This document shows, one piece after another, positions 556-16,819 of a stretch of DNA of 60,126 bases (position 1 is its first letter; every line of letters starts with the position of its first letter). The position numbers and the translations under genes are program-made. The notes below the pieces were generated by a model. The model was given only the letters and a program-made list of their open reading frames with translations. It did no database searches and was not told the origin of the DNA. The DNA is taken from contig CBFCZE010000001.1 in the NCBI GenBank assembly GCA_965602655.1, forward strand, positions 1 through 60,126. Reading direction: 5' to 3'. Source of the DNA: an uncultured bacterium (GTDB lineage Bacteria > Zixibacteria > MSB-5A5 > GN15 > PGXB01).

Positions 556-1194
556 TTATCTTCCATCCTTGGTCGGCGGGCGTGGAAAAGTCGCCAGAGT
601 TGTATCCGGCGGAGGTTCATCGCCACCTCCCCCCAATAAGACTACGGCACCGGCAACGATACCAACACCGAGTCCGATAGCCCACCATTGAGTATACCAG
701 GCTTTCTTTTCTCCGGTATCGATTGTCGGAATTGCAACGAGAGTATCAAGATCCGGGGCTTTAATTTCGGTTCCTACCAGACTTTTGGCGTGTTCCATCA
801 TTGATAAAAATTCGGTCGATTTAATATCAAGATCTCCCGACCAGTCGGCATAAGATCTAAAAGCCTTTGCAAACTGTTCAATAACTTTGTTCCGTTTTTC
901 TTTGACATCTTTGAGTTTGGCGTAATAGACCGCCGCCATAAGAACATGCGCGTTAGCCTTATCTTCAAGGCTCAATGACTCATCTTTTAGAAGGTCATTA
1001 ATTTCCATTTCGGCGCAGTTGTAATTTAGACCCTTAAATGTCTGGCGAGCATGCTCGAGCGAAGGAGCGTCCTTATCGTAAGGACAACTAATTGATTCCT
1101 GAGCCAGAACTCCTATTGGCAGGATAGTGACAATCAGATATGAGATCAACACTACTGTCATGGAGAAACGGAACAAAAGGACTTTTTTGTGCAT
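556..1194 (-). CDS. membrane-anchored hypothetical protein
   Basis: 212-aa ORF. It has an N-terminal hydrophobic signal/anchor (VVLISYLIVTILPIGVLAQE), a helical middle part, a C-terminal TM (WWAIGLGVGIVAGAVVLLGG) and a Pro-rich tail. It lies 41 nt downstream of the kinase gene on the same strand, so is probably co-transcribed. No family recognised. Confidence 0.6.
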   Translation of the reverse strand: MHKKVLLFRFSMTVVLISYLIVTILPIGVLAQESISCPYDKDAPSLEHARQTFKGLNYNCAEMEINDLLKDESLSLEDKANAHVLMAAVYYAKLKDVKEKRNKVIEQFAKAFRSYADWSGDLDIKSTEFLSMMEHAKSLVGTEIKAPDLDTLVAIPTIDTGEKKAWYTQWWAIGLGVGIVAGAVVLLGGGGDEPPPDTTLATFPRPPTKDGR

Positions 1195-1235
1195 TTGACC
1201 TCCTTTGATTATATTATGTTTATATTATTAATCTT

Positions 1236-3008
1236 TTAGTTTTGAGACCAATGTACCAATATATCGATAGATTCTGCATTTTGCCACTTTGTGGCTCCAA
1301 AATCTACCGTTGATTGTCCCTTTCTAATAAATTCTCTCGGACCACCACCATACGGAAAGGTCACTGCCGAATCTATTTTGGCGCCGGGGTAGCGTTGCCC
1401 CTGCGCATTTAAAATATTGAATCCAAATTGCCATTTGCCGGACAGTTTCTGAAGGTCAAGTATCGGGAGATCATTGGCTGAATATTTTTTCCCATGTCCG
1501 TTAAATTGAACCTCCAAAATGGCATCGCCCAGCTCGGACGGGGAAGCTCCAATTCGGAAAGTGATGGTATCTCGTAAATAAAATTCGTCCTGCAAATTAT
1601 ATCGAACGCTTCTGTCAATATTGGTCTGAACCTGATCAATCAAAATAGGGAAATCGGGATGAATAATGGTGATGTCATGATTTCCTTTGTTGATGTCAAA
1701 TTTTTTATTGGGGCTTTTTTCCACGCCGTCAACTAAAATCGCAACGTTGTAATCAGGGACGACACTAATCATCAAAGTCGGAAGCGGCGGCGGTTTTGGC
1801 GCTTCCGGCTCCGGTTGAGTTGCAGGTTTTTCTGAGGCAACAATAGATTCTTCCGATGAACCAGTGCCCGGGGTCTGCCCCTGCTTTGTAACCGGCTTTT
1901 CCTCAATAGGCTCCTGCGTCGTTTCGGGGGTTGTTGATTCATCGCCTGTGGCGGCTATCTCGCCGGAGATAGTGGTATCTTTTGAGGTTTCCTTGGTTGG
2001 GATAGCTTCATTAGTATCAGAAATTATCTCATTGACTTGGATTGATTCGATGGCTGATTGCGCCGCCGGCAGCCAGCGATCGCGAGTCAGGAACGCGCCG
2101 CCGGCCAGAAGAACTATAATTGCCGCTGTTATCCAGAGGGTTTTTTTCGATTTTCCGCCATAAACCTGCTGAACCTCTTTGAGGTCTTTACCCATTTCGG
2201 AAATTGAGTTATACCGTTTACTGGGATCCGGGTGAGTTGCTTTTTTTAATAAGTGTATCATCTGTGGAGAAAGATTTTTAGCTTTTGGACCGCCCCATTC
2301 GGTGATATCGGGGTTGGCCGGATTCCGATACGGCATTTCGTTGGTGGCGAAGTTAAAAAGTGTCACGCCGGTTTCATAAATATCGCTTAAAAACGGGTTG
2401 TAATTGGCGTCACCCGCCTGACGCTCCGGGGCGGCAAACATCGGCGTTAATGCCTGATAGGCCGTTTTGGTGGCGTCCTCACGCATTACCTTGGCGATGC
2501 CAAAATCAATCAGATATACATGATCGTTTTTATCGATTATTATATTATCGGGTTTTATATCACGATGAGCGATTTTTTTACTATGGGCATAAGCTAAGGC
2601 ACTGGTCATGGTCCGAGCAACCCTTAAAAGCATGTCACTTGATAGCGCCCCCGACTCTTTTAAAATCTCCTTGCCATCCCGACCGTCAATAAAGGCAACC
2701 ACCAGGGCGCCTTCTTCGGGAAGATAGTCGATCACGCGGCAGATATTGGGATGATCAAGAAGACATAAAACTTTGGCCTCTTTGTCAAATTTATCTCGGG
2801 CCTGGACTTTTTTAAAAAATTTTACAACCAGCTTTTGTTCGACAAGATTGACATTATAACCGCTATAAACCTCACCGAATCCGCCGCCGCCAATATATGA
2901 ACGGATCTTATATTTGCCACCGATAACCCACCCGATTACGCCAAGCGGATCAAGAGGCTTGTCATCAGAATCATCTTCCCATCCTGTGGTTTTACTTTCA
3001 TCCGACAT
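1236..3008 (-). CDS. Hanks-type Ser/Thr protein kinase, single-pass membrane protein with extracytoplasmic beta-rich (PEGA-like) domain
   Basis: Gly loop GGGGFGEVY, VVKF lysine, catalytic loop HRDIKPDNIIID, DFGIAK, FAAPE. One TM (WITAAIIVLLAGGAFL) is followed by a Pro/Thr/Glu-rich linker and a ~190-aa C-terminal domain (ISVVPDYNVAILVDGVEK...GNHDITIIHPDF). Confidence 0.9.
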   Translation of the reverse strand: MSDESKTTGWEDDSDDKPLDPLGVIGWVIGGKYKIRSYIGGGGFGEVYSGYNVNLVEQKLVVKFFKKVQARDKFDKEAKVLCLLDHPNICRVIDYLPEEGALVVAFIDGRDGKEILKESGALSSDMLLRVARTMTSALAYAHSKKIAHRDIKPDNIIIDKNDHVYLIDFGIAKVMREDATKTAYQALTPMFAAPERQAGDANYNPFLSDIYETGVTLFNFATNEMPYRNPANPDITEWGGPKAKNLSPQMIHLLKKATHPDPSKRYNSISEMGKDLKEVQQVYGGKSKKTLWITAAIIVLLAGGAFLTRDRWLPAAQSAIESIQVNEIISDTNEAIPTKETSKDTTISGEIAATGDESTTPETTQEPIEEKPVTKQGQTPGTGSSEESIVASEKPATQPEPEAPKPPPLPTLMISVVPDYNVAILVDGVEKSPNKKFDINKGNHDITIIHPDFPILIDQVQTNIDRSVRYNLQDEFYLRDTITFRIGASPSELGDAILEVQFNGHGKKYSANDLPILDLQKLSGKWQFGFNILNAQGQRYPGAKIDSAVTFPYGGGPREFIRKGQSTVDFGATKWQNAESIDILVHWSQN

Positions 3009-3337
3009 TGTCGGCTCCCTGTAAATTTAGCACCAAAATTTGTTAACCACCAAATTGAATACCATTACGACAAATTTGGATCTATCAGAAATAATTTATA
3101 ATTCAATAAAGTTATAAATTATTATAATCCAACGAATTTATATTCACTTTACCATCTATAGCAAGAACTTTTTAAAAAAATATTTTATAATGTTTTGAAA
3201 TAATCCCCAAAATTTTTTTTATTAAAAGTCTTTCAAAGGAATTTTATGTTTTCTATTTTTCAAAAACTATTTGTTGCTCTTGGAGAAAAATTTTGCTATT
3301 TATTAAAGTTACAGTTTATTAAAAGACGAAGGTGTTT

Positions 3338-4498
3338 ATGGGCAAAGGCGCAGCCACTCTCGGTTCAATGGCAGAAACCTGTAATGACCCTGCCAATATG
3401 CCGGTGGGACAGGTCATTGCCGCCGGGACGGTTTTAATTAATAAAAAACCGGCCGCAAAAAAGAACGACCAGATTGTTGGGGTTGACACTCATATTGTTT
3501 TGGTTCCTGCTCCACCCAGTCCCTCGCCAGTGCCAACCCCCCTGCCACATCCGTATACTGGCATGATTGACGGAGGACTTAGTTCCTCGGTAAACATAAT
3601 GGGTCAACCGGCGGCAACGGTTGACAGCACTGCCACAAATACGCCATCGCATATTGCCACTCCTCCCGGTGTTTCCTTTCAAAAACCGCCTGACAACAAG
3701 GCAACAATTAAAATGGGTAGTTTTGACGTCATGATCGGCAATGGTGGCAGTGGCAGTGGTAGTGGCAGCGGCGGCGGCAGTTCCGTACAAACCGAAACGG
3801 CGGCGGTTGAGGTTGACAAGGGGCATTTTCTTGATTTGAAATTTGTCGATAAGGGCGGCAAAGAAATCTCCGGTATCAATTATTCAATCAAATCACCCAG
3901 CAATGAAGAGATCAGCGGGATTATCAGCGGCCAAATTAAACAGGCCGGTTTAAAAGAAGGCGATTATGAGGTAGAGCTGAAAGCTATCACAAAAGCGGAA
4001 TGGTCCACTAACAGCGCTCATGTCGGCGATAAGGTCAAACTGCTGGTAGATTCGGTTGGAATTGAGGATGACGAAAAGGCAGTTTTGCAGGTGTTTATTA
4101 AAGATTCCAACTGCGCCGACCGGCTCCACAAATCTTTCGACTGCAAAATCAGCGGCGGGAAAATAGAATATGAGTGGGAATTGGAAGTTGATGATAACCT
4201 TGCTGAAAATCAGGATGCCAAAGTAAGAAGCAGCGGGTATTCATCGCCTGCGTTTTATTTTGCTGTTATGGTAGCTAATCTAAAAACTAAATCGGGTCTT
4301 TTGATTTTTAAGGACTATGTTGAGTTAGAGTTGAAAGACGACGATGATAAACCGATTGGAAACGTAAAATATACGGTCTATCTTCCTAACGGCGGGGTTA
4401 AGGAAGGTTATTTAGATAAAGACGGATATGCCAAAGTTGAAGATCTTCCGCCCGGTAAAATAGAATATAAATATGACATAAGAGATCGTAAGCAGTAG
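3338..4498 (+). CDS. PAAR-like spike-tip protein with Gly/Ser linker and ~235-aa beta-rich C-terminal extension
   Basis: ATG 3338 with GAAGGTG just upstream (the ORF track starts at GTG 3332). The N-terminal ~135 aa carry PAAR-type segments: LINKKPAAKKNDQIVGVDTH, PLPHPYTGMIDGGLSSSVNIMGQPAATVDS, ATIKMGSFDVMIGNG. A (G/S)14 linker occupies 3743-3784. It lies upstream of a T6SS core. Confidence 0.7.
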   Translation: MGKGAATLGSMAETCNDPANMPVGQVIAAGTVLINKKPAAKKNDQIVGVDTHIVLVPAPPSPSPVPTPLPHPYTGMIDGGLSSSVNIMGQPAATVDSTATNTPSHIATPPGVSFQKPPDNKATIKMGSFDVMIGNGGSGSGSGSGGGSSVQTETAAVEVDKGHFLDLKFVDKGGKEISGINYSIKSPSNEEISGIISGQIKQAGLKEGDYEVELKAITKAEWSTNSAHVGDKVKLLVDSVGIEDDEKAVLQVFIKDSNCADRLHKSFDCKISGGKIEYEWELEVDDNLAENQDAKVRSSGYSSPAFYFAVMVANLKTKSGLLIFKDYVELELKDDDDKPIGNVKYTVYLPNGGVKEGYLDKDGYAKVEDLPPGKIEYKYDIRDRKQ

Positions 4499-4520
4499 AT
4501 ATTTATTGCTTTTTATTAAT

Positions 4521-7500
4521 ATGCCCCCACCAAAAACACATACAAAAATAGTCACTCCCTTAAAGGGAAAATCAGTTGATATTATTGAGTTCGGAAAAGA
4601 ACTCTATAATAAAAATAGTGTTGTCCTGATGCCCGGAAAGGTTGAAAATGATATTGCCACAACCGATCACCAGGCCATGATGAAGCTTGCGGAAAGTGTG
4701 GGCTTTGTTGGAATTGCGGCTATTTTTAAACAGTTCAGTTATGATTCGCGAAAACGGTTAATATTAACCGGTCATACCGATTCTATAAATGATAAATATG
4801 CCGCTCATTTCCGTTTGAGCAAGGAGAGGGCCGAGGCGGTCTATTGTTTGCTTACGGGGAAAAAGAATCGTTGGGCGAAACTGGCACACGATAAGCATTG
4901 TATTCGGGATTATAAATGCATAATGACCTTTTTTCGATATCTTGGCGGAGATGCTTTTAAAGGTAAAGATAATTGCGATCCGGCAAAAATCGATAATGAA
5001 TGGGATGATAAAAACAAAACGCGCAACGCAGTTAGAGCCTTTTTTAAGTGTGTCAAAAAACATTACAATTTAACCATTGATGATAAAAAACTGGCCAAAG
5101 GCGTTGAAAAGGATGCCAAGAAATTGTGGCCGGAGATAATCTGGAAATCTGTTTTCGATCTGTATGTCGAACAGATACGGAAATTTCTCAAAGTCGATGC
5201 CGCCGGTCTAAAAGATTACCGCGAAAAAAAGTTAAAATTTGCACAGGCCGGTAAAGAATTTTTAGGGTGCGGATCATCGTTTCCTATGAAAACGCCCGAT
5301 GGCAGCAAATACCAGAAAGAGAAATATAGGCGGGTTGAATCTCTCTTTTTCTATCTTGACGATGTTCCGGCCCGCACAAAAGGAACGCCCAGAATTGTCT
5401 GTATCCCGGTGACCGATAAATTGCATGAAGAAAAACAGTGTCCTTTTTATCACGATAAACATTTTGTGGCCAATTATCTCAATCCGCTCAATGAATTGAA
5501 TTGGGTACCCTATCATATGAAGTTTGACTTCTATAATCAGGTTCAGCTCAAAAATGATGTTCCCAAGGTCAGGCAGGTTCCGGAAGGGTTGACTATAAAG
5601 GCCTTTCATTATAAAAAAGTTGGAGGCAATGATAAAAAAGAGGCAATTAGCACCATTATTAAATACCATAAGGGTGTTTATTCTGTTAAGGTTCCCGACG
5701 ATGACAAGCGAAAAAATATATATTTTGAATTCTCGTCAGTTACTAAAAAGGCGCCCAAGATTGAACGATGGTGGGTATACACAAAAGATGAAAATACCGA
5801 GCCGAAGCTGGAAAAGAAACTGGATGAGGACATAAATAAATTATTGACACCGAATGATTATTATAAACGGCTCAGTTTTTATGATCTGCCAGAGGAATGG
5901 TCATCCGAAAATTATATGACCAGATATAAGGAGGGCAATTCCTGGAAGGGCGGCCGGTATCAGGATGTAATGAAGACAGATTTGAAACTCAAGCCATTTG
6001 GTACAAAAGAAGCCGAAGCTGAAAAGCCTATAATATTTTCGTTGGACGATATTGTCTTGGTTGATAAGGATGGCAAACAGGATATTAAAGATAAAGATAA
6101 GACTGATGCCGATAAGGTTCTTTCCGACAAATCAAGATTGTCTCTGTTACATGTTCTCAAGGACGAACTGGTATTATATAAGCCAAGAGAAAGTGATTGT
6201 GTCCAGAATCCCAAAATCAAATCGGCATGCTTTAGCGAGATTGATTTTAGGAAAGAAGGAGTAAATTCCTGGTTTAATGTTATTTCCGATGTTCCGGCCA
6301 ACACCCGCGGAATTATGTTTTGCAATAATTTTTATGGTGTTTTCCATAAGCGTGCCGGTCAGACTGCAGCTACATTTGATCCGAAAAAGAAACATATAAA
6401 AGGTTGTCGGGCTGCCTCTCTTGTAGATGCCGAAGGTCATTGTTCGGTTAAATATAAATATGATCCTTATCTAGACACCAGTACAAAAATTACGCTGACC
6501 AATAATAGTAAAAATGTCAACGGAAATAGCACCACGTTTACGACCAAATTTAAAAAGGGCTACAAAATAAAAACATATGATGGATCTAAATGGAATAAGG
6601 ACTTGCATTATGTTGATTCAATCCAGAATGATACAGGGCTAACTCTGGTGGAAAAGGCGACTGCCACCGAGAACGGTGTTTTTTATCAGGGAATTCCCTA
6701 CTGCCATTATTCTGCAGATGACGTTGGCAATTATGAACTGCATTATATCCATTTTGGATTTGCAAAAAAAAGCCCGGACACGTATAAAGGAGGATATAAA
6801 GTACGATCTTTTTTACTGATTTACTGGAACGGACGGTTCGAGGATAAGACTGATAACACAGAAGATCCATATACGGTTACCGCGGCTGATGTTGAGACAT
6901 TTGAAAGAACCGGACTGAATAATGTAAAGACTCATTGGGAAAAAAAGAAATATAAGCTTGAGCCAGCAGAATTAGATGCTGACCAAAAGGGCAAAATTCA
7001 GATTACACCGGTTTTCTTTTATGAAGCAAAAACTACCGATCGCGGAGGCAAACATAAATGTATGGTCTCAATTGCAAATTATTTTGTTGGTAATATGGGC
7101 TTGGATACCTCAATGATGTACTATAAATTATATCAACAATACCATTCCGCGACAGTATTTGCCTGGGGGCCACCGGTTGTTGATATAGATACACTTCAAT
7201 TTGGTGATTTAACCGCGGCTCATGAACTTGGCCACGCCATTGGTCTTGATGATGATTATATTTATCGCAAAGGCGAAAAATATATAAATGCCAAAGATGC
7301 TCATTTCAGCCAATATTATCTGGGCATGCCATATCATCATGATGATTTTTCTATAATGACAAAAAATAAGGCACCCAGAATGAGGCATTTGTGGCATATT
7401 ATGAACCGCCTCAATTCGGCGGCTGACAATAATACGGAATTAAAAAAGTTGCTTAATGGAACCGAATATCAGATAGTCCACCGCTTCACAAAAAATACTG

Positions 7501-8270
7501 TCAATAAGGTATTGCGTTATCGATTAAAAAATTCTCCCGATGATTATCGTGATATTCTAAGGCCATTTAAAGAAAAGAGAAAACATAGCACCGGAACGGG
7601 CAAAGTAGATTTGGCATTATACAAACTTGGTGAAGATGAAATGACCTGGAATATCAACATTACTCCTACCCCGGCAGGACCCGCATTTAATTTTAATGGA
7701 ATTCTTGTGGTTTTTATCAAAATAGGGTTTATTTTCAAGAACTTTACTGATAATAGCGATCCCGCCCATGTTGTCACCCATAACTGGGGTAATAACAAGA
7801 AAAGTAGATTTATGGATGATATCAAGGCAAAGATTAATGAACTGAATAGGCGTTTTTATTTAAAGGGTACAAACCTTGATTTCAAAAATACATATATATT
7901 CTTTTTCCCCCTTTGCCTCGAATATGATTTCATTAAAACGAAATATGGCAATGCCGATGAAACGGCGACAAAAACTGCCGCGCATATTACTATTGAAGCT
8001 GAGTTTAATGGTACCAAAAAGGCAAAAGCAAGATCATCCCCGCTAACCAAGTTGGAGGTGGGCGATATGGTCGATTTTGATTGGGTGGCAAAATGTATAT
8101 TGGGCAAAGATCCTGGAGATACTTTGGGACATGATAAGAATTGGACCGATTGGGGTACTCCAAGTGCGGACCAGGCAAAATTTACGACGGCAGATTTTGA
8201 ACATCTTAAGACATGGATTAATTCCGCTGATGGTTTAAACGGTGGTGCATTTGAATTGAAAGGAACTTAG
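4521..8270 (+). CDS. 1249-aa putative T6SS cargo: OmpA-like peptidoglycan-binding segment + Zn-metallopeptidase (HExxHxxGxxD) domain
   Basis: First ATG at 4521 (the ORF track starts at TTG 4506). OmpA-family signature LILTGHTDSINDKYAAHFRLSKERAEAVYCLL at 4758-4850. Zinc motif AAHELGHAIGLDDDY with HELGH at 7221-7235. No signal peptide. It follows the PAAR gene with a 22-nt gap. Confidence 0.7.
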   Translation: MPPPKTHTKIVTPLKGKSVDIIEFGKELYNKNSVVLMPGKVENDIATTDHQAMMKLAESVGFVGIAAIFKQFSYDSRKRLILTGHTDSINDKYAAHFRLSKERAEAVYCLLTGKKNRWAKLAHDKHCIRDYKCIMTFFRYLGGDAFKGKDNCDPAKIDNEWDDKNKTRNAVRAFFKCVKKHYNLTIDDKKLAKGVEKDAKKLWPEIIWKSVFDLYVEQIRKFLKVDAAGLKDYREKKLKFAQAGKEFLGCGSSFPMKTPDGSKYQKEKYRRVESLFFYLDDVPARTKGTPRIVCIPVTDKLHEEKQCPFYHDKHFVANYLNPLNELNWVPYHMKFDFYNQVQLKNDVPKVRQVPEGLTIKAFHYKKVGGNDKKEAISTIIKYHKGVYSVKVPDDDKRKNIYFEFSSVTKKAPKIERWWVYTKDENTEPKLEKKLDEDINKLLTPNDYYKRLSFYDLPEEWSSENYMTRYKEGNSWKGGRYQDVMKTDLKLKPFGTKEAEAEKPIIFSLDDIVLVDKDGKQDIKDKDKTDADKVLSDKSRLSLLHVLKDELVLYKPRESDCVQNPKIKSACFSEIDFRKEGVNSWFNVISDVPANTRGIMFCNNFYGVFHKRAGQTAATFDPKKKHIKGCRAASLVDAEGHCSVKYKYDPYLDTSTKITLTNNSKNVNGNSTTFTTKFKKGYKIKTYDGSKWNKDLHYVDSIQNDTGLTLVEKATATENGVFYQGIPYCHYSADDVGNYELHYIHFGFAKKSPDTYKGGYKVRSFLLIYWNGRFEDKTDNTEDPYTVTAADVETFERTGLNNVKTHWEKKKYKLEPAELDADQKGKIQITPVFFYEAKTTDRGGKHKCMVSIANYFVGNMGLDTSMMYYKLYQQYHSATVFAWGPPVVDIDTLQFGDLTAAHELGHAIGLDDDYIYRKGEKYINAKDAHFSQYYLGMPYHHDDFSIMTKNKAPRMRHLWHIMNRLNSAADNNTELKKLLNGTEYQIVHRFTKNTVNKVLRYRLKNSPDDYRDILRPFKEKRKHSTGTGKVDLALYKLGEDEMTWNINITPTPAGPAFNFNGILVVFIKIGFIFKNFTDNSDPAHVVTHNWGNNKKSRFMDDIKAKINELNRRFYLKGTNLDFKNTYIFFFPLCLEYDFIKTKYGNADETATKTAAHITIEAEFNGTKKAKARSSPLTKLEVGDMVDFDWVAKCILGKDPGDTLGHDKNWTDWGTPSADQAKFTTADFEHLKTWINSADGLNGGAFELKGT

Positions 8271-8292: not shown

Positions 8293-9540
8293 ATGAAATG
8301 TGCAATGACAAAAATCATATATCAATTAATTTTAATTTTCCTTCCCGCTCTGATAATATTTTATGGGGCGGGGTCATGTAAAAATATGGAAGCAAAGGAT
8401 AGCAAAATGGCTTTCGAAACTAAGGATGTAGCCTACCCGGTCAGGTTTGCCAATTTCCAGAGAAATTCTAATGTCCCGGTTATGATGAAATCCAGGTGGA
8501 ATCCGGTATGGTTTAAAAAATATTCGGATATCAATATTGATTATTCATTTATACCCTATAATGTATTGGTTAGGGATAACCTTGTAGGTGTCCGCTATGA
8601 CGCAGAGATGCTATTATTTAACTCACAGGGTAATATGGTGTATCAAATGCCATTGAGTGCTTCGGGTAGTGTTGTTCTGGGTAAGACCGCTATGGCGTAT
8701 CTTGTTATGACTCATCAGATTAACTATCGAGATTATGAATTTAACCTGATTGAAAATATTGGTACACTCCCGGAATTGAATGAATGGTCATATGAATTAC
8801 TTATGTGCCCTACATTTGAAGATATTCTGGCAGTAGTTCAATTTACCGGAGGTCCTCAATATGAACCAAGGAAATATTATATTTATAAGCTTCTTCCGAA
8901 TAAAAGAGATGTTGACTGGTTCCACGAATTTGACGGTGTTGCGAATCATGCTCTTCTGACAAATGATGAAAATAACATCATTCTGGTAAATCGAAATAAT
9001 GTCAGCATTTTTAATACCGATTCGGGAGAGAATACTGGATCATTTAAAATTAATTTTGATGACACGATTGAGCCTGATGTACCATCGATTGCCTCGTTGG
9101 ATAAAAATGACAATCTTGTAATCCTTGCGGACAGAATAGTTGATGAAAAGACCGATAAATATCTGGCGGTTTATTCTCCTGACGGCAAGGAACTCTGGTC
9201 GTTCAAATTAAATGAACCCAATCTCAATCAACCGCCTGCGTGCGATAACGACGGCCGAATATTTATTATTGATGGATTACAACTTCATTGTTTAAAAGAT
9301 GGTGAAATTGATTGGACGGCGATTCTTAAACCGGCTGAAAGAAATTGGATCACTATCACTTCTGACAATCATGCCGTAGTTATAAATGGAAGCCTGCTGG
9401 CTCTGTTTGCGCCAAATGGTGAAAAACTGTTTGAACGGCTTATAACTAAGACCGATGATCAGTTTTATGCCCCGCCGGCACTTGATAAAGATGGACATAT
9501 ATTTGTGGCTGGCCAGAAGGCGTTGTACTGTTTTGAATAA
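8293..9540 (+). CDS. lipoprotein with PQQ-like/beta-propeller repeats (candidate immunity or periplasmic accessory protein)
   Basis: Lipobox-like IIFYGAGSC near the N-terminus. Repeated 'DG..W.f' blades at the C-terminus (SPDGKELWSFKL, DNDGRIFIIDGLQLHCL, DGEIDWTAIL, APNGEKLFERL, DKDGHIFVAGQKALYCF). Confidence 0.6.
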   Translation: MKCAMTKIIYQLILIFLPALIIFYGAGSCKNMEAKDSKMAFETKDVAYPVRFANFQRNSNVPVMMKSRWNPVWFKKYSDINIDYSFIPYNVLVRDNLVGVRYDAEMLLFNSQGNMVYQMPLSASGSVVLGKTAMAYLVMTHQINYRDYEFNLIENIGTLPELNEWSYELLMCPTFEDILAVVQFTGGPQYEPRKYYIYKLLPNKRDVDWFHEFDGVANHALLTNDENNIILVNRNNVSIFNTDSGENTGSFKINFDDTIEPDVPSIASLDKNDNLVILADRIVDEKTDKYLAVYSPDGKELWSFKLNEPNLNQPPACDNDGRIFIIDGLQLHCLKDGEIDWTAILKPAERNWITITSDNHAVVINGSLLALFAPNGEKLFERLITKTDDQFYAPPALDKDGHIFVAGQKALYCFE

Positions 9541-9588: not shown

Positions 9589-10032
9589 ATGAGCAAAAAT
9601 AATCCGTTTAAATTTGATCTTCCAAAAGGCTGGATGGATCAAACCGTATACGTTTTTCAGGGTCCGAAAGAGGCCGATTTGGATCACAGTATTATGCTGA
9701 CCCTTGATAGAAAATTGCGGCACGATGAAATTTCCAATTTTGCTGCTGAAAGAACCTCGCCGATTATTGAAACGATGGATGGTATCGATGTGCTAAAGGA
9801 TGAAGAAATTACGCTACCAAACGGTAATCCGGCCTGGGAATTTGTCTACAAATGGGTTCCCGCCGATGATATGATATTTTTCCAGAAATACGTCTTTGTC
9901 TATAAGGATAAAATAGGTTTTACCTTTTCGGGAAAATTTACCAAACAGACGATTAAAACTGTCGGCGCCCAGATGAAACAAATAATTGAAACTCTTCTGC
10001 CGGGAACGTATGAGCCTTTGGATGAAGATTGA
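9589..10032 (+). CDS. DUF1795 (DcrB/Eag-like) effector-associated chaperone candidate
   Basis: 147 aa. The opening NPFKFDLPKGWMDQTVYVFQGP matches my recollection of the DUF1795 'F.LP.GW.D.T...F' start. Size is typical for the family. Its TGA stop overlaps the ATG of the next gene (TGATG). Confidence 0.55.
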   Translation: MSKNNPFKFDLPKGWMDQTVYVFQGPKEADLDHSIMLTLDRKLRHDEISNFAAERTSPIIETMDGIDVLKDEEITLPNGNPAWEFVYKWVPADDMIFFQKYVFVYKDKIGFTFSGKFTKQTIKTVGAQMKQIIETLLPGTYEPLDED

Positions 10033-11255
10033 TGTCTGATTTGAAATTCACAAAAGCGACCGATGAGGAGCATGAGATTAAACTCGATTCCCATCTTATC
10101 AGCGCCTCCTGGGTTTCCGGGATGGCCTTTGTCGGTTTAAAGCCCAAATTTGAGGTGCGCACTGTTTTTGTCGGCAATGGTTCCAAAATAAAAGTAAAGG
10201 GCAAAACCGAAAAGGGTAAAAAACTCGGTAAAGTTAAGGGTAAAATGCAAGCTAATGTTTTTACCGGCGAGTTTGAGATTCCTGATAAAATAGAGTTGGA
10301 TGATCAGATATATTTTGAAGTCGACCTTTCCGCCAACGGTCTCAGCGGCGAATCGGCCAAAATTCCGGTATACCCGCAACCCAAACTAAAAAGTATCAAA
10401 TGGAGCGCCGATGAGGCCCGGCGTGGTGATGTCTTAACCATGTCGGCCGAGCTGGAAGATGTAAAAGACGGCGTTGAAACTAAACTGATAATATATGAGT
10501 TTGACAACGATGGCGCCCACGATAAAATCTCTGAATTGCCGGCAACCGTCAAGGAGAGTAAAATTGAAGAGATGTGGGAGTATGAATATCACGAGGATAC
10601 CGATGAACTCCCCACCAGCGAGGAGGTCGAAAAATACGGTGGATCATATAATCCGCCTGAATATTTTTTCACTATCAAAGTCGGTGAATTTGAACTGGGA
10701 AAAGAAAATCAGGATTCGGGGATTTTGAATTTTAAAGACTGGTTTGAATATAAGCTTGAAGATGAAAATGGTACTTCGATAGCCGATGAAAAGTACAAAG
10801 CGATATTGCCCGATGGTCAGGAAAAAGAAGGTAAAACCGATTCTGACGGATTAATAATTATTAAAGAAGTCCCTCCCGGTAAAGTTAAAATTGAATTTCC
10901 TTCGGATGAAGACGAAGATGAAGAAGAAGAAAAAGAGGAGGAAGAAAAGGATGCTGAGGAACAGAAAATTCCGGAGGGCCAGGCGGATCAGACTCAAACG
11001 CAGTCAGGTGAAGATGTAGATTCAGTGGAAGAAGAAGATAGTGACGAAGATCAGGAAGAAAATAAGGAAGATGATGACGATGAAGAATTGAATCAGGCAA
11101 GAGAAGAAACAGGGACCGGTTCATCAACGCAGTCGGGCAGAAGTGGTGGGGCGACCCAGACAGGTGAATCGGGCGGTTCGACTCAATCAGATGATACATC
11201 CAGCTCAACACAACAGGATGATTCCTCGCAAACATCAACGCAATCAGGAGCTTAA
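10032..11255 (+). CDS. hypothetical protein: beta-rich N-terminal domains shared with the PAAR protein extension + long acidic / Ser-Thr-Gln-rich tail
   Basis: ATG 10032 is coupled to the upstream stop. Segment ~10392-10600 (SIKWSADEARRGDVL...IEEMWEYEYHED) resembles PAAR-protein segment ~3991-4194 (KAEWSTNSAHVGDKV...IEYEWELEVDD). Motif YKAILPDGQEKEGKTDSDGLIIIKEVPPGKVKIEFP at 10794-10901. Low-complexity tail ~10905-11252. Confidence 0.6.
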   Translation: MSDLKFTKATDEEHEIKLDSHLISASWVSGMAFVGLKPKFEVRTVFVGNGSKIKVKGKTEKGKKLGKVKGKMQANVFTGEFEIPDKIELDDQIYFEVDLSANGLSGESAKIPVYPQPKLKSIKWSADEARRGDVLTMSAELEDVKDGVETKLIIYEFDNDGAHDKISELPATVKESKIEEMWEYEYHEDTDELPTSEEVEKYGGSYNPPEYFFTIKVGEFELGKENQDSGILNFKDWFEYKLEDENGTSIADEKYKAILPDGQEKEGKTDSDGLIIIKEVPPGKVKIEFPSDEDEDEEEEKEEEEKDAEEQKIPEGQADQTQTQSGEDVDSVEEEDSDEDQEENKEDDDDEELNQAREETGTGSSTQSGRSGGATQTGESGGSTQSDDTSSSTQQDDSSQTSTQSGA

Positions 11256-11323
11256 GTTAGAATATTTTTATATGATTGTTCTTTTCCATATTTGAAGGGG
11301 CAATAGCCGAATTTGAGGTTATT

Positions 11324-13966
11324 ATGGCAGGCGATTCGGGCGTTGGTACAGGTAAACGCCATACAAGAAAAAGAAAATGCAGACTTCATGAAAATTGTTA
11401 TATCTATGAAGCTTTAAAACTGCATGACTCCTATATTGAGGCTCTAAAAAGTCTGGATTCTTTGCAGAAAAGTTATGCTGTTGGATTAAATGCATCCAGA
11501 TTTACACGCGATATTTGCAGGAACCTGGCCGATCATGAAGGCAAGGTGAAATCTAAATTAACCGAGTTTGGCGGTCCCGGTACCAAAGGTTCAATAAAAA
11601 TTTCATTGAAGGATAGAAGGGGGCGGCCGGTTGGCGGTGAAAAGTATGATCTCTATATTCCGGGAGAAAAAAAGCGATCCGGTAGCCTTGGCGGAGACGG
11701 CACTAAGGTTGAAAAGAATATCAACACCGGACCATGCTTTGTAAATTTTCCCAATCGGGGTGAAGATACATGGGAATATTTGCTGGCGCCAAAAAGATAT
11801 AAGGTCAAGGAAGAATATTGGGCTAATATCAAAGGGGGCGTCGCCGGTATTAAAAAAGGTAAAGAAGCAGTTACGGCGACCTCTTATGAAACCACGCATT
11901 TAAAAAAATATATCGAATATCGAGAAAATAAAATTGTTGCCGTTGAAAGCGATGCAGAAAAAGCGGCCGAAAAGCTTATTAAGCTTATTAAAAGCCCAAA
12001 GGTTCAAAAACATATCAAGAAGCAACATGGCAATCGTCTTTTGCCGGATTCTTTGATAAAAGAATTTTATGGTGTCGATCCAAATAGTTCAGACAAGAAA
12101 TATCGTGAGAGCGACCATTACCTGGCAATCTTAACCGAAGATCTGAATAAAACCCGAGCCGGCTTGAAATTTCTCGATACCCTATTCGATGAAAATAAAT
12201 TATCCAAGCAATATGCTTTTAAGGATTTATGGGGATTTATCGGGAAAACAAAAACGGCATCGGAAGCCTCAGGTAAGTTTCTTTTTAATGTTATGCCAGC
12301 CCTGTCCCTTAAGATAAATCAGGTAGTAGATTGGGATCAGATTGATTCAATTACCGATATTACAAATAAGAATGCTACTATAAAACCATACTTTCAAACA
12401 CTGGAAAAATATCTCGGCAAAAATAAGTTCTCCAAATGGCTGGGTGCCCGGGTTGATGATCTGGCCAAAAGAAATAGGACTGCGGTAAAGGCAGCTCGAA
12501 ATAGAAAAACGTTTGATCGTTTAATTAAAATCTGGTCTGATCCGAACAATTCAAGGTATGATGCCGTTTATGCGGCAACGGCGAAAAAACATGATGCCGA
12601 GAAGGCCCTCGACGGTGTCTGGTTTGGTATGGCTCTCGATACCGTTGCGGTTGTTCTATCTACTTATGACATATTCAAAACAGTTCAGAAGGCTCCTCTT
12701 AAAGATAAGATAGGATTGGTCGGTGATATATTAGGGGCTATCAAAACCGTGGCCGAAGCGGTTGAAAGTACACAAAATCTAAGGGTGGCTGTTGCCGCTG
12801 AAACCGGGGCCAGCGGTGAAACCATAAAAACATTAACCACTCGGGCGAATGCGGCCAAAATTTGTGTTCGTGTTCTAACTGTTCTTGGGGTTGTTGTCTC
12901 GGCGGTGGTGATGGTTTGCGAAATTTATGATGCCTGGCGTAAACGGAACTGGCGTGTGGTTGCCCTTAGTATTGCATCGTTTGGAGCCATGCTTGTCGGT
13001 CTAGCCTATACCGGTATTGGTGCCGTCATATCAATCATTATTGCAATTATTGCTTATCTTGTTTATGAACCGCCGGTAGTAGACTTTATTCAATTGTCTT
13101 ACTGGGGTGAAGATTATATCGAGGCTCAGGATAAAATTGCTATCAAAGACACCATACTTAAATACTTTGAAGTAATATATACATTAAAGATTAGATTTAT
13201 TCACAAATGGGGTGGTGATGCAAATAAATCATTTATGTATATACAATGCGGGATGCTTTCTGAGAAAGCCCCTATCTATGTACAGGTATTTGAATATAAA
13301 AATAAAAAATTCTATCCTTTATCAAAGCAATGGAAAAAGGTTTATCCCGGATTGGAAAATGTTGACGGTAAAGGACGCGTTTTTAAAGAGATCACAACCT
13401 GGTCAAAATGCCCGAATCGACCCCGGACAATTCAAATACATAAGTATTGGGAAATATGGCCGAATATAAAGCGTGACAGTGATACCAAATACTGGGTGGC
13501 TGCGGCTCTGGATCCCAGTCGCGATTCACGATATGCCTTAAAAGACCAAACATGGGTCACGTTTCCATCTCCGGAGAAACCAAAACTCAAAATCAATAAT
13601 CCATTCAGTACGTCGGCGTATATTGATCGCAATATCTATATAACATACTATAAGGGCAAAATTTCAATGATTTTCCGGACCAATTACGCTAAGGGTTGTT
13701 ATATGAAGTTATGGCTTACCCGAGAAGGCAGTGGTTTATTTAATTGGGATAAAGAAATACATGAGGGGCTTAAAATTCCGGTAACCGCCGACACAACTAA
13801 GAAAAGGGTCAGAGTCCCGGATCCCAAAAATGGCACATATGAGGTAACAGCAAAAGTAGTGTTATATAACGCAAAAGATGAAGAAGTTGATACTGAAACC
13901 TTTTCTGGCGTTCTAAGCACGTATATTGTAGCGTCCCAGAAATATATTGATAAGCTTAAAGGCTAA
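11324..13966 (+). CDS. 880-aa putative membrane-targeting T6SS cargo with central cluster of TM helices
   Basis: ATG 11324 with GAGG 7 nt upstream (the ORF track starts at TTG 11276). Hydrophobic helices VWFGMALDTVAVVLSTYDIF, ICVRVLTVLGVVVSAVVMVCEIY and WRVVALSIASFGAMLVGLAYTGIGAVISIIIAIIAYLVY lie at ~12615-13068. No signal peptide. An N-terminal copy of the small beta-sandwich motif sits at 11645-11752. Confidence 0.6.
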   Translation: MAGDSGVGTGKRHTRKRKCRLHENCYIYEALKLHDSYIEALKSLDSLQKSYAVGLNASRFTRDICRNLADHEGKVKSKLTEFGGPGTKGSIKISLKDRRGRPVGGEKYDLYIPGEKKRSGSLGGDGTKVEKNINTGPCFVNFPNRGEDTWEYLLAPKRYKVKEEYWANIKGGVAGIKKGKEAVTATSYETTHLKKYIEYRENKIVAVESDAEKAAEKLIKLIKSPKVQKHIKKQHGNRLLPDSLIKEFYGVDPNSSDKKYRESDHYLAILTEDLNKTRAGLKFLDTLFDENKLSKQYAFKDLWGFIGKTKTASEASGKFLFNVMPALSLKINQVVDWDQIDSITDITNKNATIKPYFQTLEKYLGKNKFSKWLGARVDDLAKRNRTAVKAARNRKTFDRLIKIWSDPNNSRYDAVYAATAKKHDAEKALDGVWFGMALDTVAVVLSTYDIFKTVQKAPLKDKIGLVGDILGAIKTVAEAVESTQNLRVAVAAETGASGETIKTLTTRANAAKICVRVLTVLGVVVSAVVMVCEIYDAWRKRNWRVVALSIASFGAMLVGLAYTGIGAVISIIIAIIAYLVYEPPVVDFIQLSYWGEDYIEAQDKIAIKDTILKYFEVIYTLKIRFIHKWGGDANKSFMYIQCGMLSEKAPIYVQVFEYKNKKFYPLSKQWKKVYPGLENVDGKGRVFKEITTWSKCPNRPRTIQIHKYWEIWPNIKRDSDTKYWVAAALDPSRDSRYALKDQTWVTFPSPEKPKLKINNPFSTSAYIDRNIYITYYKGKISMIFRTNYAKGCYMKLWLTREGSGLFNWDKEIHEGLKIPVTADTTKKRVRVPDPKNGTYEVTAKVVLYNAKDEEVDTETFSGVLSTYIVASQKYIDKLKG

Positions 13967-14264: not shown

Positions 14265-15716
14265 ATGGACATAGCCAATTATTCATCAGATTCTCGGGCC
14301 GTTATTAAGAACGCCAAGGAAGTTGCCGCTCAATTGAGGCATATCGAAATTGAAGTTGAGCATCTTCTGATCGCAACCATCAGGCACGAGGGTTCCGAAG
14401 TTGAGTCAATCTTAAATCAGCTCGGAAAAAGCGTCGGCTTTATCGAATCGGCCGCCGACGAGTATCTTAAGGATCAAACCAAAAAATCAACTGTCACCAA
14501 CCCGACCATTTCACCCGGAGTTCAGGAAGCTCTGATGCAGGCGGTTGATGAAAAAAGCAAGCTTATGGATGCTCTGGTGGAACCGGAGCATATTTTTATT
14601 GCTATTTTTGATCCCAAATCAAAGCTGTCGGGGTTTGTCCGCGAAAAAACCGAGCTGACCAAGGAAGATCTTTATCGTGCTCTGGCCGACAGTAAATCGG
14701 TCGCCGAAATTACCACCGGTGTGACACCGGCCGACGGAAAACCGGCCGAAGAGGGTGAAAAGAAAGTTTCCGGAACACTTCGCTACTGCGTTGATCTGAC
14801 CAATCAGGCCGCGGCCGGTGAGTTTGATCCCGTTATAGGACGAAGCAAGGAAGTTCAGCAGGCAATACAAATATTGCTTCGCCGACGTAAAAACAGCCCG
14901 GTTCTGGTCGGCGGTGCCGGAGTGGGCAAAACCGCCATTGTTGAAGGTTTCTGTCAGGCTATCATTGACGGTGCCGTTCCTAAAGCGCTCGAAAATGTAA
15001 AAGTGATGGAAGTAGATATGGGGGCACTTGTTGCCGGGGCCAAATATAAGGGGGAATTTGAGGAACGATTTAAAGCACTGATTGGCGATGTGGTTAAATC
15101 GGGCGGCAAGATTGTTCTTTTTATCGATGAAATTCATAACATTACAACCTCTGGTGGGGGCGGCGGGACCGATGCAGCCAATTTGATAAAACCGGCTCTC
15201 GCTCGTGGTCAAATTCGGCTTATTGGTGCCACAACCGAGGAAGAATATATTAAACATCTTGAAAAAGATAAGGCACTCGATCGACGATTTGAAAAGATTA
15301 AGATCGAGCAGCCGGACTATGACGATTCCGTCCGGATTCTGGAAGGGGTCGCCGGCAAATATGAAGAACATCATAAGATAGTTTATGACCATGAGGCCCT
15401 TTCAAGTTCGGTAAAATTCGCCCAGCGTTATCTCAGCGAACGAAATCTTCCCGATATAGCGCTTGATATTATTGATGAAGCCGCCTCTGAATTTGATGTC
15501 AAAAAAGAAATGGCGGGCCAGAAAATCCCGGTCATGGGCGAGCAGATTACAGAAATTACCGAACTTCTTAAAAAATGTGAAGGTAAAACACCTGAAAAGT
15601 GCGGCGAAGATTATGACAAACTGACCAAAGTCTATGATAAATTCTCGCGAAGTCTCGAAACGCTCCAAGATCACTGGGGTTATCGTCTGGAAGTCAAAGC
15701 GGAGGGGACCAAATAA
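14265..15716 (+). CDS. clpV: ClpV/TssH AAA+ ATPase, N-terminal half (N-domain + D1 ring + coiled-coil stub)
   Basis: Clp N-domain-like start. D1 Walker [17 protein letters not shown], Walker [34 protein letters not shown]. It ends within the region where ClpB/ClpV carry the middle domain. Confidence 0.85.
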
Positions 15717-16819
15717 TGCCGGATAAACCAAGAAAAATCAGCGAGATAAAAGAAGAATTCGACGTTAAAGTTGATCAACTGAAATCTTTACAGGGGGTTG
15801 TTGAATCTCTTGAGAATAAAATCGACGATGCCGATATCGCCACCGTTGTGGCTCGTCGAACCGGCATACCGGTAACCAAAATGATGACAGCCGAAAAAGA
15901 CAAGCTGGTCAATATGGAGGCTTTTCTTTCGAAAAAAATTATTGGTCAGAAGGATGCCATTAAAGTCATCGCAAATGCCATTAGAAAATCACGAGCCGGG
16001 TTGAAGATGAAAAATCGCCCGGTCGGCTCATTTCTCTTTCTGGGTCCGACCGGAACCGGTAAGACATATCTGCCAAAACTGTTGGCCGAATTCCTTTTCG
16101 ATGACAAGAATGCTATGGTGCGTCTTGATATGTCGGAATTTATGGAATCGCATTCAGTGGCCAAAATGATTGGCGCCCCTCCCGGATATGTCGGATATGA
16201 GGCGGGTGGTTTGTTGACCGAAGCGGTTCGCCGCAAACCATTTTCTATTGTCCTGCTGGATGAAGTGGAAAAGGCACATCCCGATGTGTTTAACGTTTTG
16301 CTTCAATTACTTGATGACGGTCGTTTGACCGACGGGCAGGGACGAACAGTCGATTTTTCGAATACGCTGGTTGTCCTGACAAGCAACTATGCCGCCGAAA
16401 AGATTCTTGAGGCCGATCGTGAGGGTCGGGAAGTTGATATGGAAGAAGTTCGTGGTTTTCTGTTCAGCAAATTCCGTCCTGAGTTTTTGAATCGTCTCAA
16501 TGATATTATTATTTATCACACCTTTACTCAGGAGCAGGTGGAAAAAATAACGGCACTGGAATTTAATGCATTGTGTGATCTTCTTAAAGACCAGAATATC
16601 ACCGCCAATCTCAGCGATGGGGCGTGCAAAAAACTTGCCGCGGACGGTTATACAATCGAGCTTGGAGCTCGTCCGATTCAAAGGACAATAGAGAAAGAGA
16701 TTATTAATAAATTATCGGTTGATATTATAACCGGCAATATTTCTCCCGGCGACAATATCTCGGTTGATATCAAAGACGATAAATATATTTTTAATGTGAT
16801 TAAAGAAGAGAATTCATAA
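15716..16819 (+). CDS. clpV: ClpV/TssH AAA+ ATPase, C-terminal half (D2 ring + C-terminal domain)
   Basis: RRTGIPV, Walker A FLFLGPTGTGKTYLPKLLAEFLF, Walker B IVLLDEVEKAHPDVFNVLLQLLDDGRLTD, VVLTSN, RPEFLNRLNDIIIYHTF. ATG 15716 shares its A with the TAA stop of the upstream half (TAATG). Confidence 0.85.
   Translation: MPDKPRKISEIKEEFDVKVDQLKSLQGVVESLENKIDDADIATVVARRTGIPVTKMMTAEKDKLVNMEAFLSKKIIGQKDAIKVIANAIRKSRAGLKMKNRPVGSFLFLGPTGTGKTYLPKLLAEFLFDDKNAMVRLDMSEFMESHSVAKMIGAPPGYVGYEAGGLLTEAVRRKPFSIVLLDEVEKAHPDVFNVLLQLLDDGRLTDGQGRTVDFSNTLVVLTSNYAAEKILEADREGREVDMEEVRGFLFSKFRPEFLNRLNDIIIYHTFTQEQVEKITALEFNALCDLLKDQNITANLSDGACKKLAADGYTIELGARPIQRTIEKEIINKLSVDIITGNISPGDNISVDIKDDKYIFNVIKEENS

Follow-up and report, generated by a model that had tools for sequence, protein, structure and literature searches.

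The 60,126-nucleotide stretch of DNA considered here (hereafter the window), which comes from an uncultured bacterium of the Zixibacteria (assembly GCA_965602655.1, contig CBFCZE010000001.1, positions 1 to 60,126), carries at positions 4521..8270 a gene for a protein of 1249 amino acids that probably is a toxic effector of a type VI secretion system (T6SS). According to this reading, to which we assign a rough probability of 0.7, the protein is a PAAR-loaded, metzincin-type peptidase acting in the periplasm of a target cell, with the beta-propeller lipoprotein encoded by the next open reading frame (ORF 8293) serving as immunity protein. The argument is built on the observed domain content of the protein, the invariance of its catalytic and wall-binding residues, its linkage to T6SS genes, the variability of the slot which the gene occupies and its near-obligate pairing with the propeller gene; from these we infer that the protein is loaded onto PAAR and secreted, where it acts, that it is toxic, that the propeller inhibits it and what kind of substrate it has. 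T6SS toxins that act in the periplasm and are countered by an immunity protein of the envelope are already known as a kind of system. New are the family itself, the propeller that accompanies it, its range of phyla and an architecture made up of an OmpA-like domain, a helical region, a Cys/His cluster, Ig-like domains, a metzincin domain and a C-terminal region.

The frame is uninterrupted on the forward strand (as are all features below unless stated otherwise) and translates into 1249 residues; an alternative TTG start at 4506, which is the one chosen in the database representative, would add five residues (1254 amino acids). The original prediction, made from the letters of the DNA alone, had read this frame as open, free of a signal peptide and located immediately behind a PAAR gene, all of which was borne out. 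A hydrophobicity scan found neither a signal peptide nor a membrane helix: the N-terminus is hydrophilic, and the sole hydrophobic segment of the protein (residues 1054-1072) is a buried beta-strand in the predicted structure. The stop codon of the PAAR gene (3332..4498) lies 22 nucleotides 5' of the effector-candidate ATG. Its product matches PF05488 (E-value (E) 3.4e-6; 27.6 bits against a cut-off of 27), has a long C-terminal extension with a prealbumin/transthyretin-like fold (PF17802, E 2.9e-5) and is presumed to be the spike tip that carries the effector.

Linkage to type VI secretion loci

Homologous loci were compared in a set of 79 from species-representative genomes of at least eight phylum-level groups, with genome labels that comprise Zixibacteria, Krumholzibacteria, Ignavibacteria, Bacteroidetes, Fibrobacterota/Chitinivibrionales, Desulfobacterota, Aminicenantes and GN15. 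The distribution of homologues, which the original prediction had named as a test, is tied to T6SS loci: a PAAR gene lies directly 5' of the large gene in 76 of the 79 loci, and ClpV, TssB, TssC, Hcp or VgrG is present in every flank that reaches far enough. The gene order PAAR–large gene–propeller–Eag-like gene–adaptor is kept across phyla, beside ClpV-TssBC or VgrG. Desulfobacterota and Aminicenantes that hold this cassette have a sheath of the PF05943 (proteobacterial) type, whereas that of the window is of the PF17541 type; the cassette thus occurs beside two different T6SS subtypes.

Such tight synteny suggested a universal core gene of this type of T6SS, a possibility that was rejected on the basis of presence counts and replacement at the slot. 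In a phylum sample of 201 genomes, TssC was found in 105 and relatives of the large protein in 64 (62 of them with TssC), with the propeller in 48, all of which had both. Of the 20 genomes sampled from the family to which the window belongs, every one has TssC but only 11 have a relative of the large protein. Four T6SS-positive genomes of the same family that gave no match to the large protein have retained the PAAR, Eag-like, adaptor and ClpV genes. In three of them the slot is filled by a protein of 555-579 amino acids (one with PG_binding_1) followed by an exported protein of 243-325 amino acids (one with HEAT repeats), and in the fourth by a 774-residue protein with no called partner gene ahead of the Eag-like gene. 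Divergence is equally uneven, with a median identity to the window in the best high-scoring segment pair of 74-78% for TssB/C, 63-76% for ClpV, 33% for the large protein and 24.5% for the propeller. Patchy presence, replacement at the slot, fast divergence and portability together argue that effector and immunity genes form a cassette here, in a cargo slot linked to PAAR.

By the marks of an effector, then, the gene lies in a T6SS locus, adjoins a spike gene and encodes no Sec signal; it varies in presence and is replaced at its slot by other toxin-like pairs; and it adjoins a co-inherited gene whose product is placed in the compartment of action, with the caveat that about eight of these partners lack a signal peptide. 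The in silico tests named in the original prediction came out in favour of an effector (for the Met-turn, at the level of sequence), and domain searches in particular returned no housekeeping family.

A large family with a putative metzincin domain

A database search returned 40 full-length homologues, most of them unnamed or 'hypothetical' and two called OmpA family proteins, and among 1.84 billion cluster representatives (clusters at 50% identity) a profile matched 1867 at E<=1e-3, of which 705 reached E<=1e-30. Library scans found no Pfam or NCBIfam model for this family, the lone Pfam match of the protein being a below-threshold one to OmpA, and the NCBIfam scan of the protein and its neighbours gave nothing except a weak effector-family match on ORF 11276. 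Neither the single sequence searched against PDB sequences nor, at E<=0.001, Foldseek comparison of two AlphaFold models with the PDB produced a match, and our literature search found no paper on the family, on a T6SS metzincin effector or on the T6SSs of these phyla. An alignment of 31 full-length homologues has 38 invariant columns. Eight residues—H901, E902, H905, G908, D911, Y913, M946 and R953—are invariant both in these and in 56 peptidase-domain sequences; in the latter, which are 26-55% identical to the domain of the window, they are together with G842 (a sheet glycine) the only invariant positions. By this measure of sequence conservation, the motifs are beyond chance and are real features of a large family.

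These residues are concentrated in the predicted catalytic domain (approximately residues 735-970; 6723..7430), which together with the C-terminal region was modelled with high confidence (model m476e58c0a3c1, residues 711-1249; predicted local distance difference test score (pLDDT) 89.6, predicted template modelling score 0.89). The sequence HELGH lies exactly at 7221-7235, where it had been reported, and opens the zinc motif H901-E-L-G-H905-A-I-G908-L-D-D911-D912-Y913 (7221..7259), which contributes six of the eight invariant residues. Thus, the protein has the extended zinc motif HExxHxxGxx(H/D) of the metzincin clan. With roles and definitions for the clan taken from PMC12237041 (extended zinc motif, Met-turn and family-specific residue), H901, H905 and D911 would be zinc ligands, E902 the catalytic residue, D/E912 the acidic family-specific residue and Y913 at the 'tyrosine switch' position. 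A Met-turn downstream of the zinc motif, which the original prediction had asked for, has an invariant candidate at sequence level in M946 (7356..7358; in S-I-M, with S944 being S in 25 of the 31 homologues), located 35 residues past the putative third ligand D911 and followed by a predicted C-terminal helix (residues 954-968, i.e. model residues 244-258; 7380..7424). The model has the order active-site helix, methionine, C-terminal helix.

The best Foldseek matches of the catalytic model are serralysin, ADAM10, BF3526 and astacin (E 0.1-0.8), and a profile of the domain searched against the PDB gave 17 matches, the best 15 of which are all metzincins (E 0.025-0.4). Taken together, nearly all fold and profile matches are to metzincins, namely serralysins, ADAM10/TACE, astacin, BF3526/BACOVA_00663, snapalysin and MMP-2, and every one is weak (E 0.025-1.6). 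Scans of the protein and its homologues found no Pfam metzincin family at threshold, including M6, M7 and M64. Motifs and predicted topology would thus place the protein in a new, divergent family inside the metzincin clan and outside M6, M7 and M64. The original prediction had equated aspartate as third ligand with the snapalysins; the Asp motif itself stands, but not its exclusivity, as thuringilysins share this aspartate (PMC12237041), and the protein belongs to neither family. Membership in the snapalysins (M7) was rejected since there is no Peptidase_M7 match, the snapalysin structure 1c7k is matched only at E 0.28-0.37 over the motif and the architecture differs. Membership in the igalysins (M64) was rejected because all sequences have the spacing HExxHxxGxxD, not HExxHxxxGxxD.

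The catalytic domain is followed by an alpha/beta region (approximately residues 971-1249; 7431..8267) with pLDDT mostly above 90, for which no fold match of its own was found. By analogy to the wrapping domains of igalysins and thuringilysins, it may pack on the catalytic domain as a support. With this, of the about 800 residues in which nothing had been recognized from the sequence, parts are now covered by confident AlphaFold models (helical, Cys/His, Ig-like and C-terminal alpha/beta regions), with the C-terminal part still without a fold match.

Probable wall-binding module at the N-terminus and middle region

The N-terminal part of the protein (approximately residues 17-125; 4569..4895) has the features of an OmpA-like peptidoglycan-binding domain. 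The signature placed at 4758-4850 by the original prediction was recovered, with both G84-H-T-D87 (4770-4781) and L99-S-K-E-R103-A (4815-4832; R103 codon at 4827-4829) inside these limits. As a single sequence, the protein scores 17.9 bits against PF00691 (OmpA), which is under the curated cut-off of 27.2, and homologues reach up to 32.9 bits; at the family level, OmpA is matched by 24 of 31 homologues at E<=0.1 (best E 8e-8), and a family profile matches solved OmpA/Pal domains (E 1.6e-4). The AlphaFold model of residues 1-720 (m41bb1816a500; pLDDT 86.8) retrieved with Foldseek, at a probability of 0.84, structure 3td5, in which the OmpA-like domain of Acinetobacter baumannii is bound to a peptidoglycan pentapeptide. 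Aspartate is kept at position 87 in 26 of 28 aligned residues, and arginine at position 103 in 29 of 31; we take the positions of D87 and R103 to be those of the residues of OmpA-like domains which, in 3td5, contact the diaminopimelate of the stem peptide. A few family members have PG_binding_1 in place of OmpA (E 5.8e-14).

This domain is followed by a helical region (approximately residues 126-240; 4896..5240), with helices predicted at 128-237 in model m41bb1816a500. Where the similarity of a relative to our protein is limited to the N-terminus, PG_binding_1 is matched (E 1e-4) at the corresponding position, and by this analogy the helical region is possibly a second wall-binding module. 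Further downstream, C250, C294, H302 and C307 (5268..5441) form a conserved Cys/His cluster (at least 90% conserved; pLDDT 55-75 in this part of the model), which from its residues may be a structural metal site. The beta-rich middle of the protein (approximately residues 315-710; 5463..6650; pLDDT mostly above 90) consists of sandwiches with Ig-like Foldseek matches, and features the invariant motifs YDLPxxWSS and FSLDDIV as well as a lineage-specific insert at about residues 640-730.

The N-terminal wall-binding module is also found joined to other C-termini, in genes at five loci (L088:8001-12272, L109:2759-5167, L110, L111 and L112), where an OmpA-like domain followed by a PG_binding_1-like region is seen in three of the five. 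The exchanged C-termini include a calcineurin-like phosphoesterase (Pfam Metallophos, L088) and a Peptidase_C39-like domain (L109), and some of these genes lie outside recognizable T6SS loci. These five are true module swaps; 'N-terminus only' matches at L085 and L086 are instead divergent full-length members with inserts. A shared wall-docking N-terminus with swappable enzymatic C-termini is typical of polymorphic toxins.

The beta-propeller partner

The gene directly downstream (8293..9540) encodes a beta-propeller lipoprotein of 415 amino acids with PQQ_2/BamB-like similarity (E 1.2e-5), a hydrophobic N-terminus and a lipobox, its signal ending in ...YGAGSC. Its pairing with the large gene was assessed by iterative profile search in the 66 loci that contain a complete peptidase-bearing gene and sufficient downstream sequence, with the next gene defined as one within 400 nucleotides. 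In all but one of these loci (65/66) a member of the propeller family comes next. The product of the next gene begins with a hydrophobic segment resembling a signal in 56 of the 66 loci, and many of these N-termini include a lipobox.

The propeller gene also lies 3' of a 898-residue form of the protein with a different N-terminus (L087) and of a 1486-residue orphan form on a Desulfospira chromosome (L069), and in the phylum sample it was seen only beside the large gene. Among relatives that share only the N-terminal module, none was detected at the four loci with an examinable downstream flank (L018, L088, L110, L112); L109, where the sequence ends about 70 nucleotides past the gene, and L111, with two downstream ORFs without Pfam match, are uninformative in this respect. 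The propeller, therefore, tracks the peptidase domain and not the OmpA/wall-binding end, and is probably an immunity protein or inhibitor that protects the producer.

The Desulfospira pair (L069:8300-13965) is located between genes for resistance-nodulation-division (RND) efflux and a Na+/H+ exchanger. Its 1486-residue protein starts with prealbumin-like domains and has CBM5/12 modules in addition to the shared peptidase region, with the propeller lipoprotein encoded next to it; sheath genes of the T6SSi type are present elsewhere in this genome.

Proposed mode of action and alternatives

In the mechanism we propose, the effector, having no signal peptide, would be synthesized in the cytoplasm, mounted on the PAAR spike tip encoded just 5' of it and fired into a neighbouring Gram-negative cell. 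In the periplasm of this target, the OmpA-like domain would dock on peptidoglycan, perhaps helped by the second wall-binding module, and the metzincin domain, with zinc held by H901, H905 and D911, E902 acting as general base, M946 beneath the metal and Y913 close to it, would cut a peptide bond in the envelope. A wall-associated or lipid-anchored protein seems a better candidate substrate than a peptidoglycan peptide, because to our knowledge no metzincin cleaves peptidoglycan and the known wall endopeptidases use other folds. Sister cells would be shielded by the propeller lipoprotein, most likely by blocking the active-site cleft.

Several observations weigh against this picture. The synteny of the module across phyla is unusually conserved for an effector. 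The assignment to the metzincin clan comes mainly from motifs and predicted topology, the fold and profile matches being as weak as stated above. With 415 amino acids, the propeller exceeds the size expected of an immunity protein. For widespread toxins, orphan immunity genes are a common sight, but no orphan propeller gene was found in effector-free genomes among the 201 sampled (E<=1e-8). A subclade of about eight partners, from Ignavibacteria and some Zixibacteria (L021, L028, L029, L030, L032, L065, L077, L078), is without signal peptide and begins approximately ten residues ahead of the conserved 'RF(F)AN..R' core. Among the effectors beside these, a pattern search recovered the OmpA motif in seven of eight, and the zinc motif is kept in each of the seven scored (all but L029); such partners fit poorly with a purely periplasmic immunity role. 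Finally, the sequencing runs listed as containing the stretch are DNA only (marine-sediment and subsurface metagenomes), with no RNA run among them.

Some of these points, together with others, can be accommodated by different explanations. An unlikely one, though one that deserves attention, is that the protein is a T6SS effector whose metzincin domain cuts stems or cross-links of peptidoglycan directly and thereby lyses the target, as do Tae amidases or M23-type endopeptidases. One, possibly two wall-binding modules, the swaps between OmpA and PG_binding_1 among family members, which suggest that the protein acts at the sacculus, and the occurrence of another PG_binding_1 protein in the same slot of sister genomes would all be in line with this, but no similarity to wall hydrolase families was found by Pfam, NCBIfam, fold or profile searches. 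Known peptidoglycan endopeptidases have LAS/M23/M15, NlpC/P60 or M14-like folds, and metzincin clefts are extended and made for L-peptide chains, which also counts against direct cutting of peptidoglycan. Another option is an accessory part of the machine, which would open or grip the producer's own wall so that the apparatus could be assembled or fired (as with TagX, MltE or peptidoglycan-binding extensions of TagL/TssL in other T6SSs), with the propeller as a periplasmic partner. Such a role could explain why a five-gene block is syntenic across many phyla beside ClpV and includes a wall-binding domain in a locus in which the usual TssJLM membrane complex is not recognizable. A protein without signal peptide or membrane helix, however, cannot reach its own periplasm by Sec. 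Moreover, this one was unfound in 43 of the 105 T6SS-positive genomes, has other gene pairs at its slot in the same family, diverges far faster than the machine and occurs beside two T6SS subtypes, all of which makes a machine part very unlikely. TssR or another known membrane-complex component was rejected on related grounds (no signal peptide, no vWA match, unmatched in many T6SS-positive genomes).

The effector could also be real without the propeller being its antidote: the latter might be a loading or stabilizing factor, a co-secreted partner or a chaperone that keeps the enzyme latent, with immunity provided otherwise or not needed. The signal-less partners, a size of about 400 amino acids, the absence of orphan copies and the fact that T6SS adaptors are commonly encoded beside effectors are all compatible with this idea. 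Yet most of the next genes, including that of the window, encode a signal-like N-terminus, many with a lipobox, and an exported lipoprotein cannot chaperone cytoplasmic cargo; the propeller is also the fastest-evolving gene of the block and follows the toxic domain rather than the delivery end, and we therefore regard this option as improbable. That the zinc motif is a relic and the protein acts non-catalytically, e.g. as a wall-binding plug or scaffold, is an extremely remote prospect, as nothing specific speaks for it and catalytic and metal-binding residues, the methionine and the flanking glycine are invariant in the 56 divergent peptidase-domain sequences.

Relation to known systems

For a wall-docking metzincin effector, the nearest functional precedent appears to be VgrG2b of the H2-T6SS of Pseudomonas aeruginosa, whose metallopeptidase domain has its toxic effect in the periplasm alone, where the envelope immunity protein PA0261 neutralizes it; VgrG2b appears to deplete lipoproteins, and envelope lipoproteins are a probable, though unsettled, substrate (PMC6899460). 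Common to both are a HExxH zinc peptidase, T6SS delivery and an adjacent gene for envelope immunity (these two proposed for our protein) and a transthyretin-like domain at the spike. In contrast to VgrG2b, which is fused to the spike protein, the protein described here is a separate 1249-residue cargo beside PAAR, adds wall-binding domains and a full metzincin signature, and has a 415-residue propeller instead of a small protein as its partner. VgrG2b was not returned by PDB sequence or profile searches nor by Foldseek.

Among metzincins, an aspartate as third zinc ligand is common to snapalysins (M7) and thuringilysins (M6), and igalysins (M64) have HExxHxxxGxxD with one extra residue before the glycine (PMC12237041). 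With these families (including BF3526, BACOVA_00663 and IgAse), which are among its best fold and profile matches, our protein shares the Asp ligand, an acidic family residue, a tyrosine at Asp+2, a Met-turn candidate and a predicted C-terminal helix. Snapalysin, however, is a secreted enzyme of about 130 residues, and connecting segment, flanking domains and biological setting are different here. The best profile matches are serralysins. These are known together with periplasmic inhibitors (AprA/AprI, PrtA/Inh), i.e. as metzincins beside a dedicated exported protein that protects the producer, which is the role the propeller would resemble; but serralysins use type I secretion and small beta-barrel inhibitors, in contrast to the proposed T6SS export and the beta-propeller lipoprotein of the present system.

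An OmpA-like domain in a T6SS-encoded protein is also found in TagL and some TssL proteins; these are membrane-anchored structural parts of the producer, whereas our protein is soluble, has no export signal and is patchily distributed among sister genomes. As a large protein of a T6SS locus in the Fibrobacteres–Chlorobi–Bacteroidetes (FCB) group without earlier annotation, it can finally be compared to TssR of the Bacteroidota T6SS membrane complex, an essential lipoprotein of 790 amino acids with a vWA domain (PMC10781749), from which it differs by having no lipoprotein signal and no vWA domain and by being dispensable at the genome level.

Neighbouring genes and genomic setting

Downstream of the propeller gene, ORF 9589..10032 encodes an Eag-type chaperone-like protein without signal peptide (PF08786, E 8.9e-7; in 66 of the 79 loci); the Eag-type label assumes that PF08786 corresponds to DUF1795, which we take from a literature listing. 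It probably serves a second cargo and belongs to the conserved frame of the cargo block, being retained where the large gene has been swapped out. The adaptor-like protein encoded at 10029..11255, which has an acidic tail and a domain in common with the PAAR C-terminus (tblastn cross-matches with PAAR genes), is present in 73 of the 79 loci and is likewise part of this conserved frame.

A second variable cargo slot then follows, occupied in the window by a gene for an 896-residue protein with internal membrane helices (11276..13966; hydrophobic segments at 524-605). Homologues of this protein are found in 7 of the 79 loci, and its weak NCBIfam match is to the T6SS effector family BTH_I2691 (E 3.6e-8, far under the family cut-off). 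Across loci L002-L087, the region between adaptor gene and ClpV mostly comprises 2-3 kb of unrelated sequence per locus, and a gene whose product has a signal-like N-terminus comes after in some of them. Further 3' are genes for ClpV (two ORFs), TssB, TssC, Hcp, VgrG, TssE, TssF, TssG and TssK. The split of ClpV into two adjacent ORFs (14265-16819; about 483-490 and 363-367 amino acids) recurs in all seven Zixibacteria loci excised (L081-L087), and ClpV is a single ORF of 872 amino acids in the distant locus L090:1950-4568; the split looks like a conserved lineage trait rather than an assembly error.

Upstream of the PAAR gene and divergent from it (556-3008, minus strand) lie a gene for a Hanks-type Ser/Thr kinase and a small secreted-looking ORF (ORF 556), which often accompanies the kinase gene. 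Such a kinase gene upstream of PAAR is seen in L014, L025, L078, L083, L084 and L087, and a kinase homologue in 28 of the 79 loci, which suggests control of T6SS firing by phosphorylation. The fraction of G+C is 0.388 in the effector gene and 0.380 in the propeller gene, below the 0.46-0.47 of the PAAR, ClpV and TssC genes and the mean of 0.423 for the window; a mobile cassette could explain this, but as VgrG also has 0.397, the evidence is weak. The source genome is a 2.9-Mb assembly of 95% completeness, with close relatives labelled Zixibacteria; it belongs to a marine-sediment bacterium for which metagenomes are the sole source.

Biological significance

At the scale of the whole family, and with odds that we put slightly below even, the gene pair may represent a large undescribed family of T6SS toxins in at least eight, mostly uncultured, phylum-level groups, in which a wall-docking metzincin and its propeller lipoprotein antidote form a cassette that moves between two T6SS subtypes. 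Work on T6SS effectors has dealt almost exclusively with Proteobacteria and gut Bacteroidales. If true, this would be the first toxin family described from T6SSs in Zixibacteria, Krumholzibacteria, Ignavibacteria, Fibrobacterota and their relatives, which are abundant in sediments, and a metzincin with wall-binding domains would join the short list of T6SS metallopeptidase toxins. Should the substrate be a conserved wall-tethered envelope protein, this would be a new mode of T6SS killing. We know of no beta-propeller protein that inhibits a metzincin, and the propeller is thus a candidate for a new class of metzincin protein inhibitor.

Furthermore, the PAAR-adjacent slot, framed as it is by conserved adaptor genes, is a place to mine for more toxin-antidote pairs in these phyla. 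With 1867 clusters at 50% identity and predictions that are simple to test in E. coli, this large unannotated family could thus become a good starting point for bench work on interbacterial toxins.

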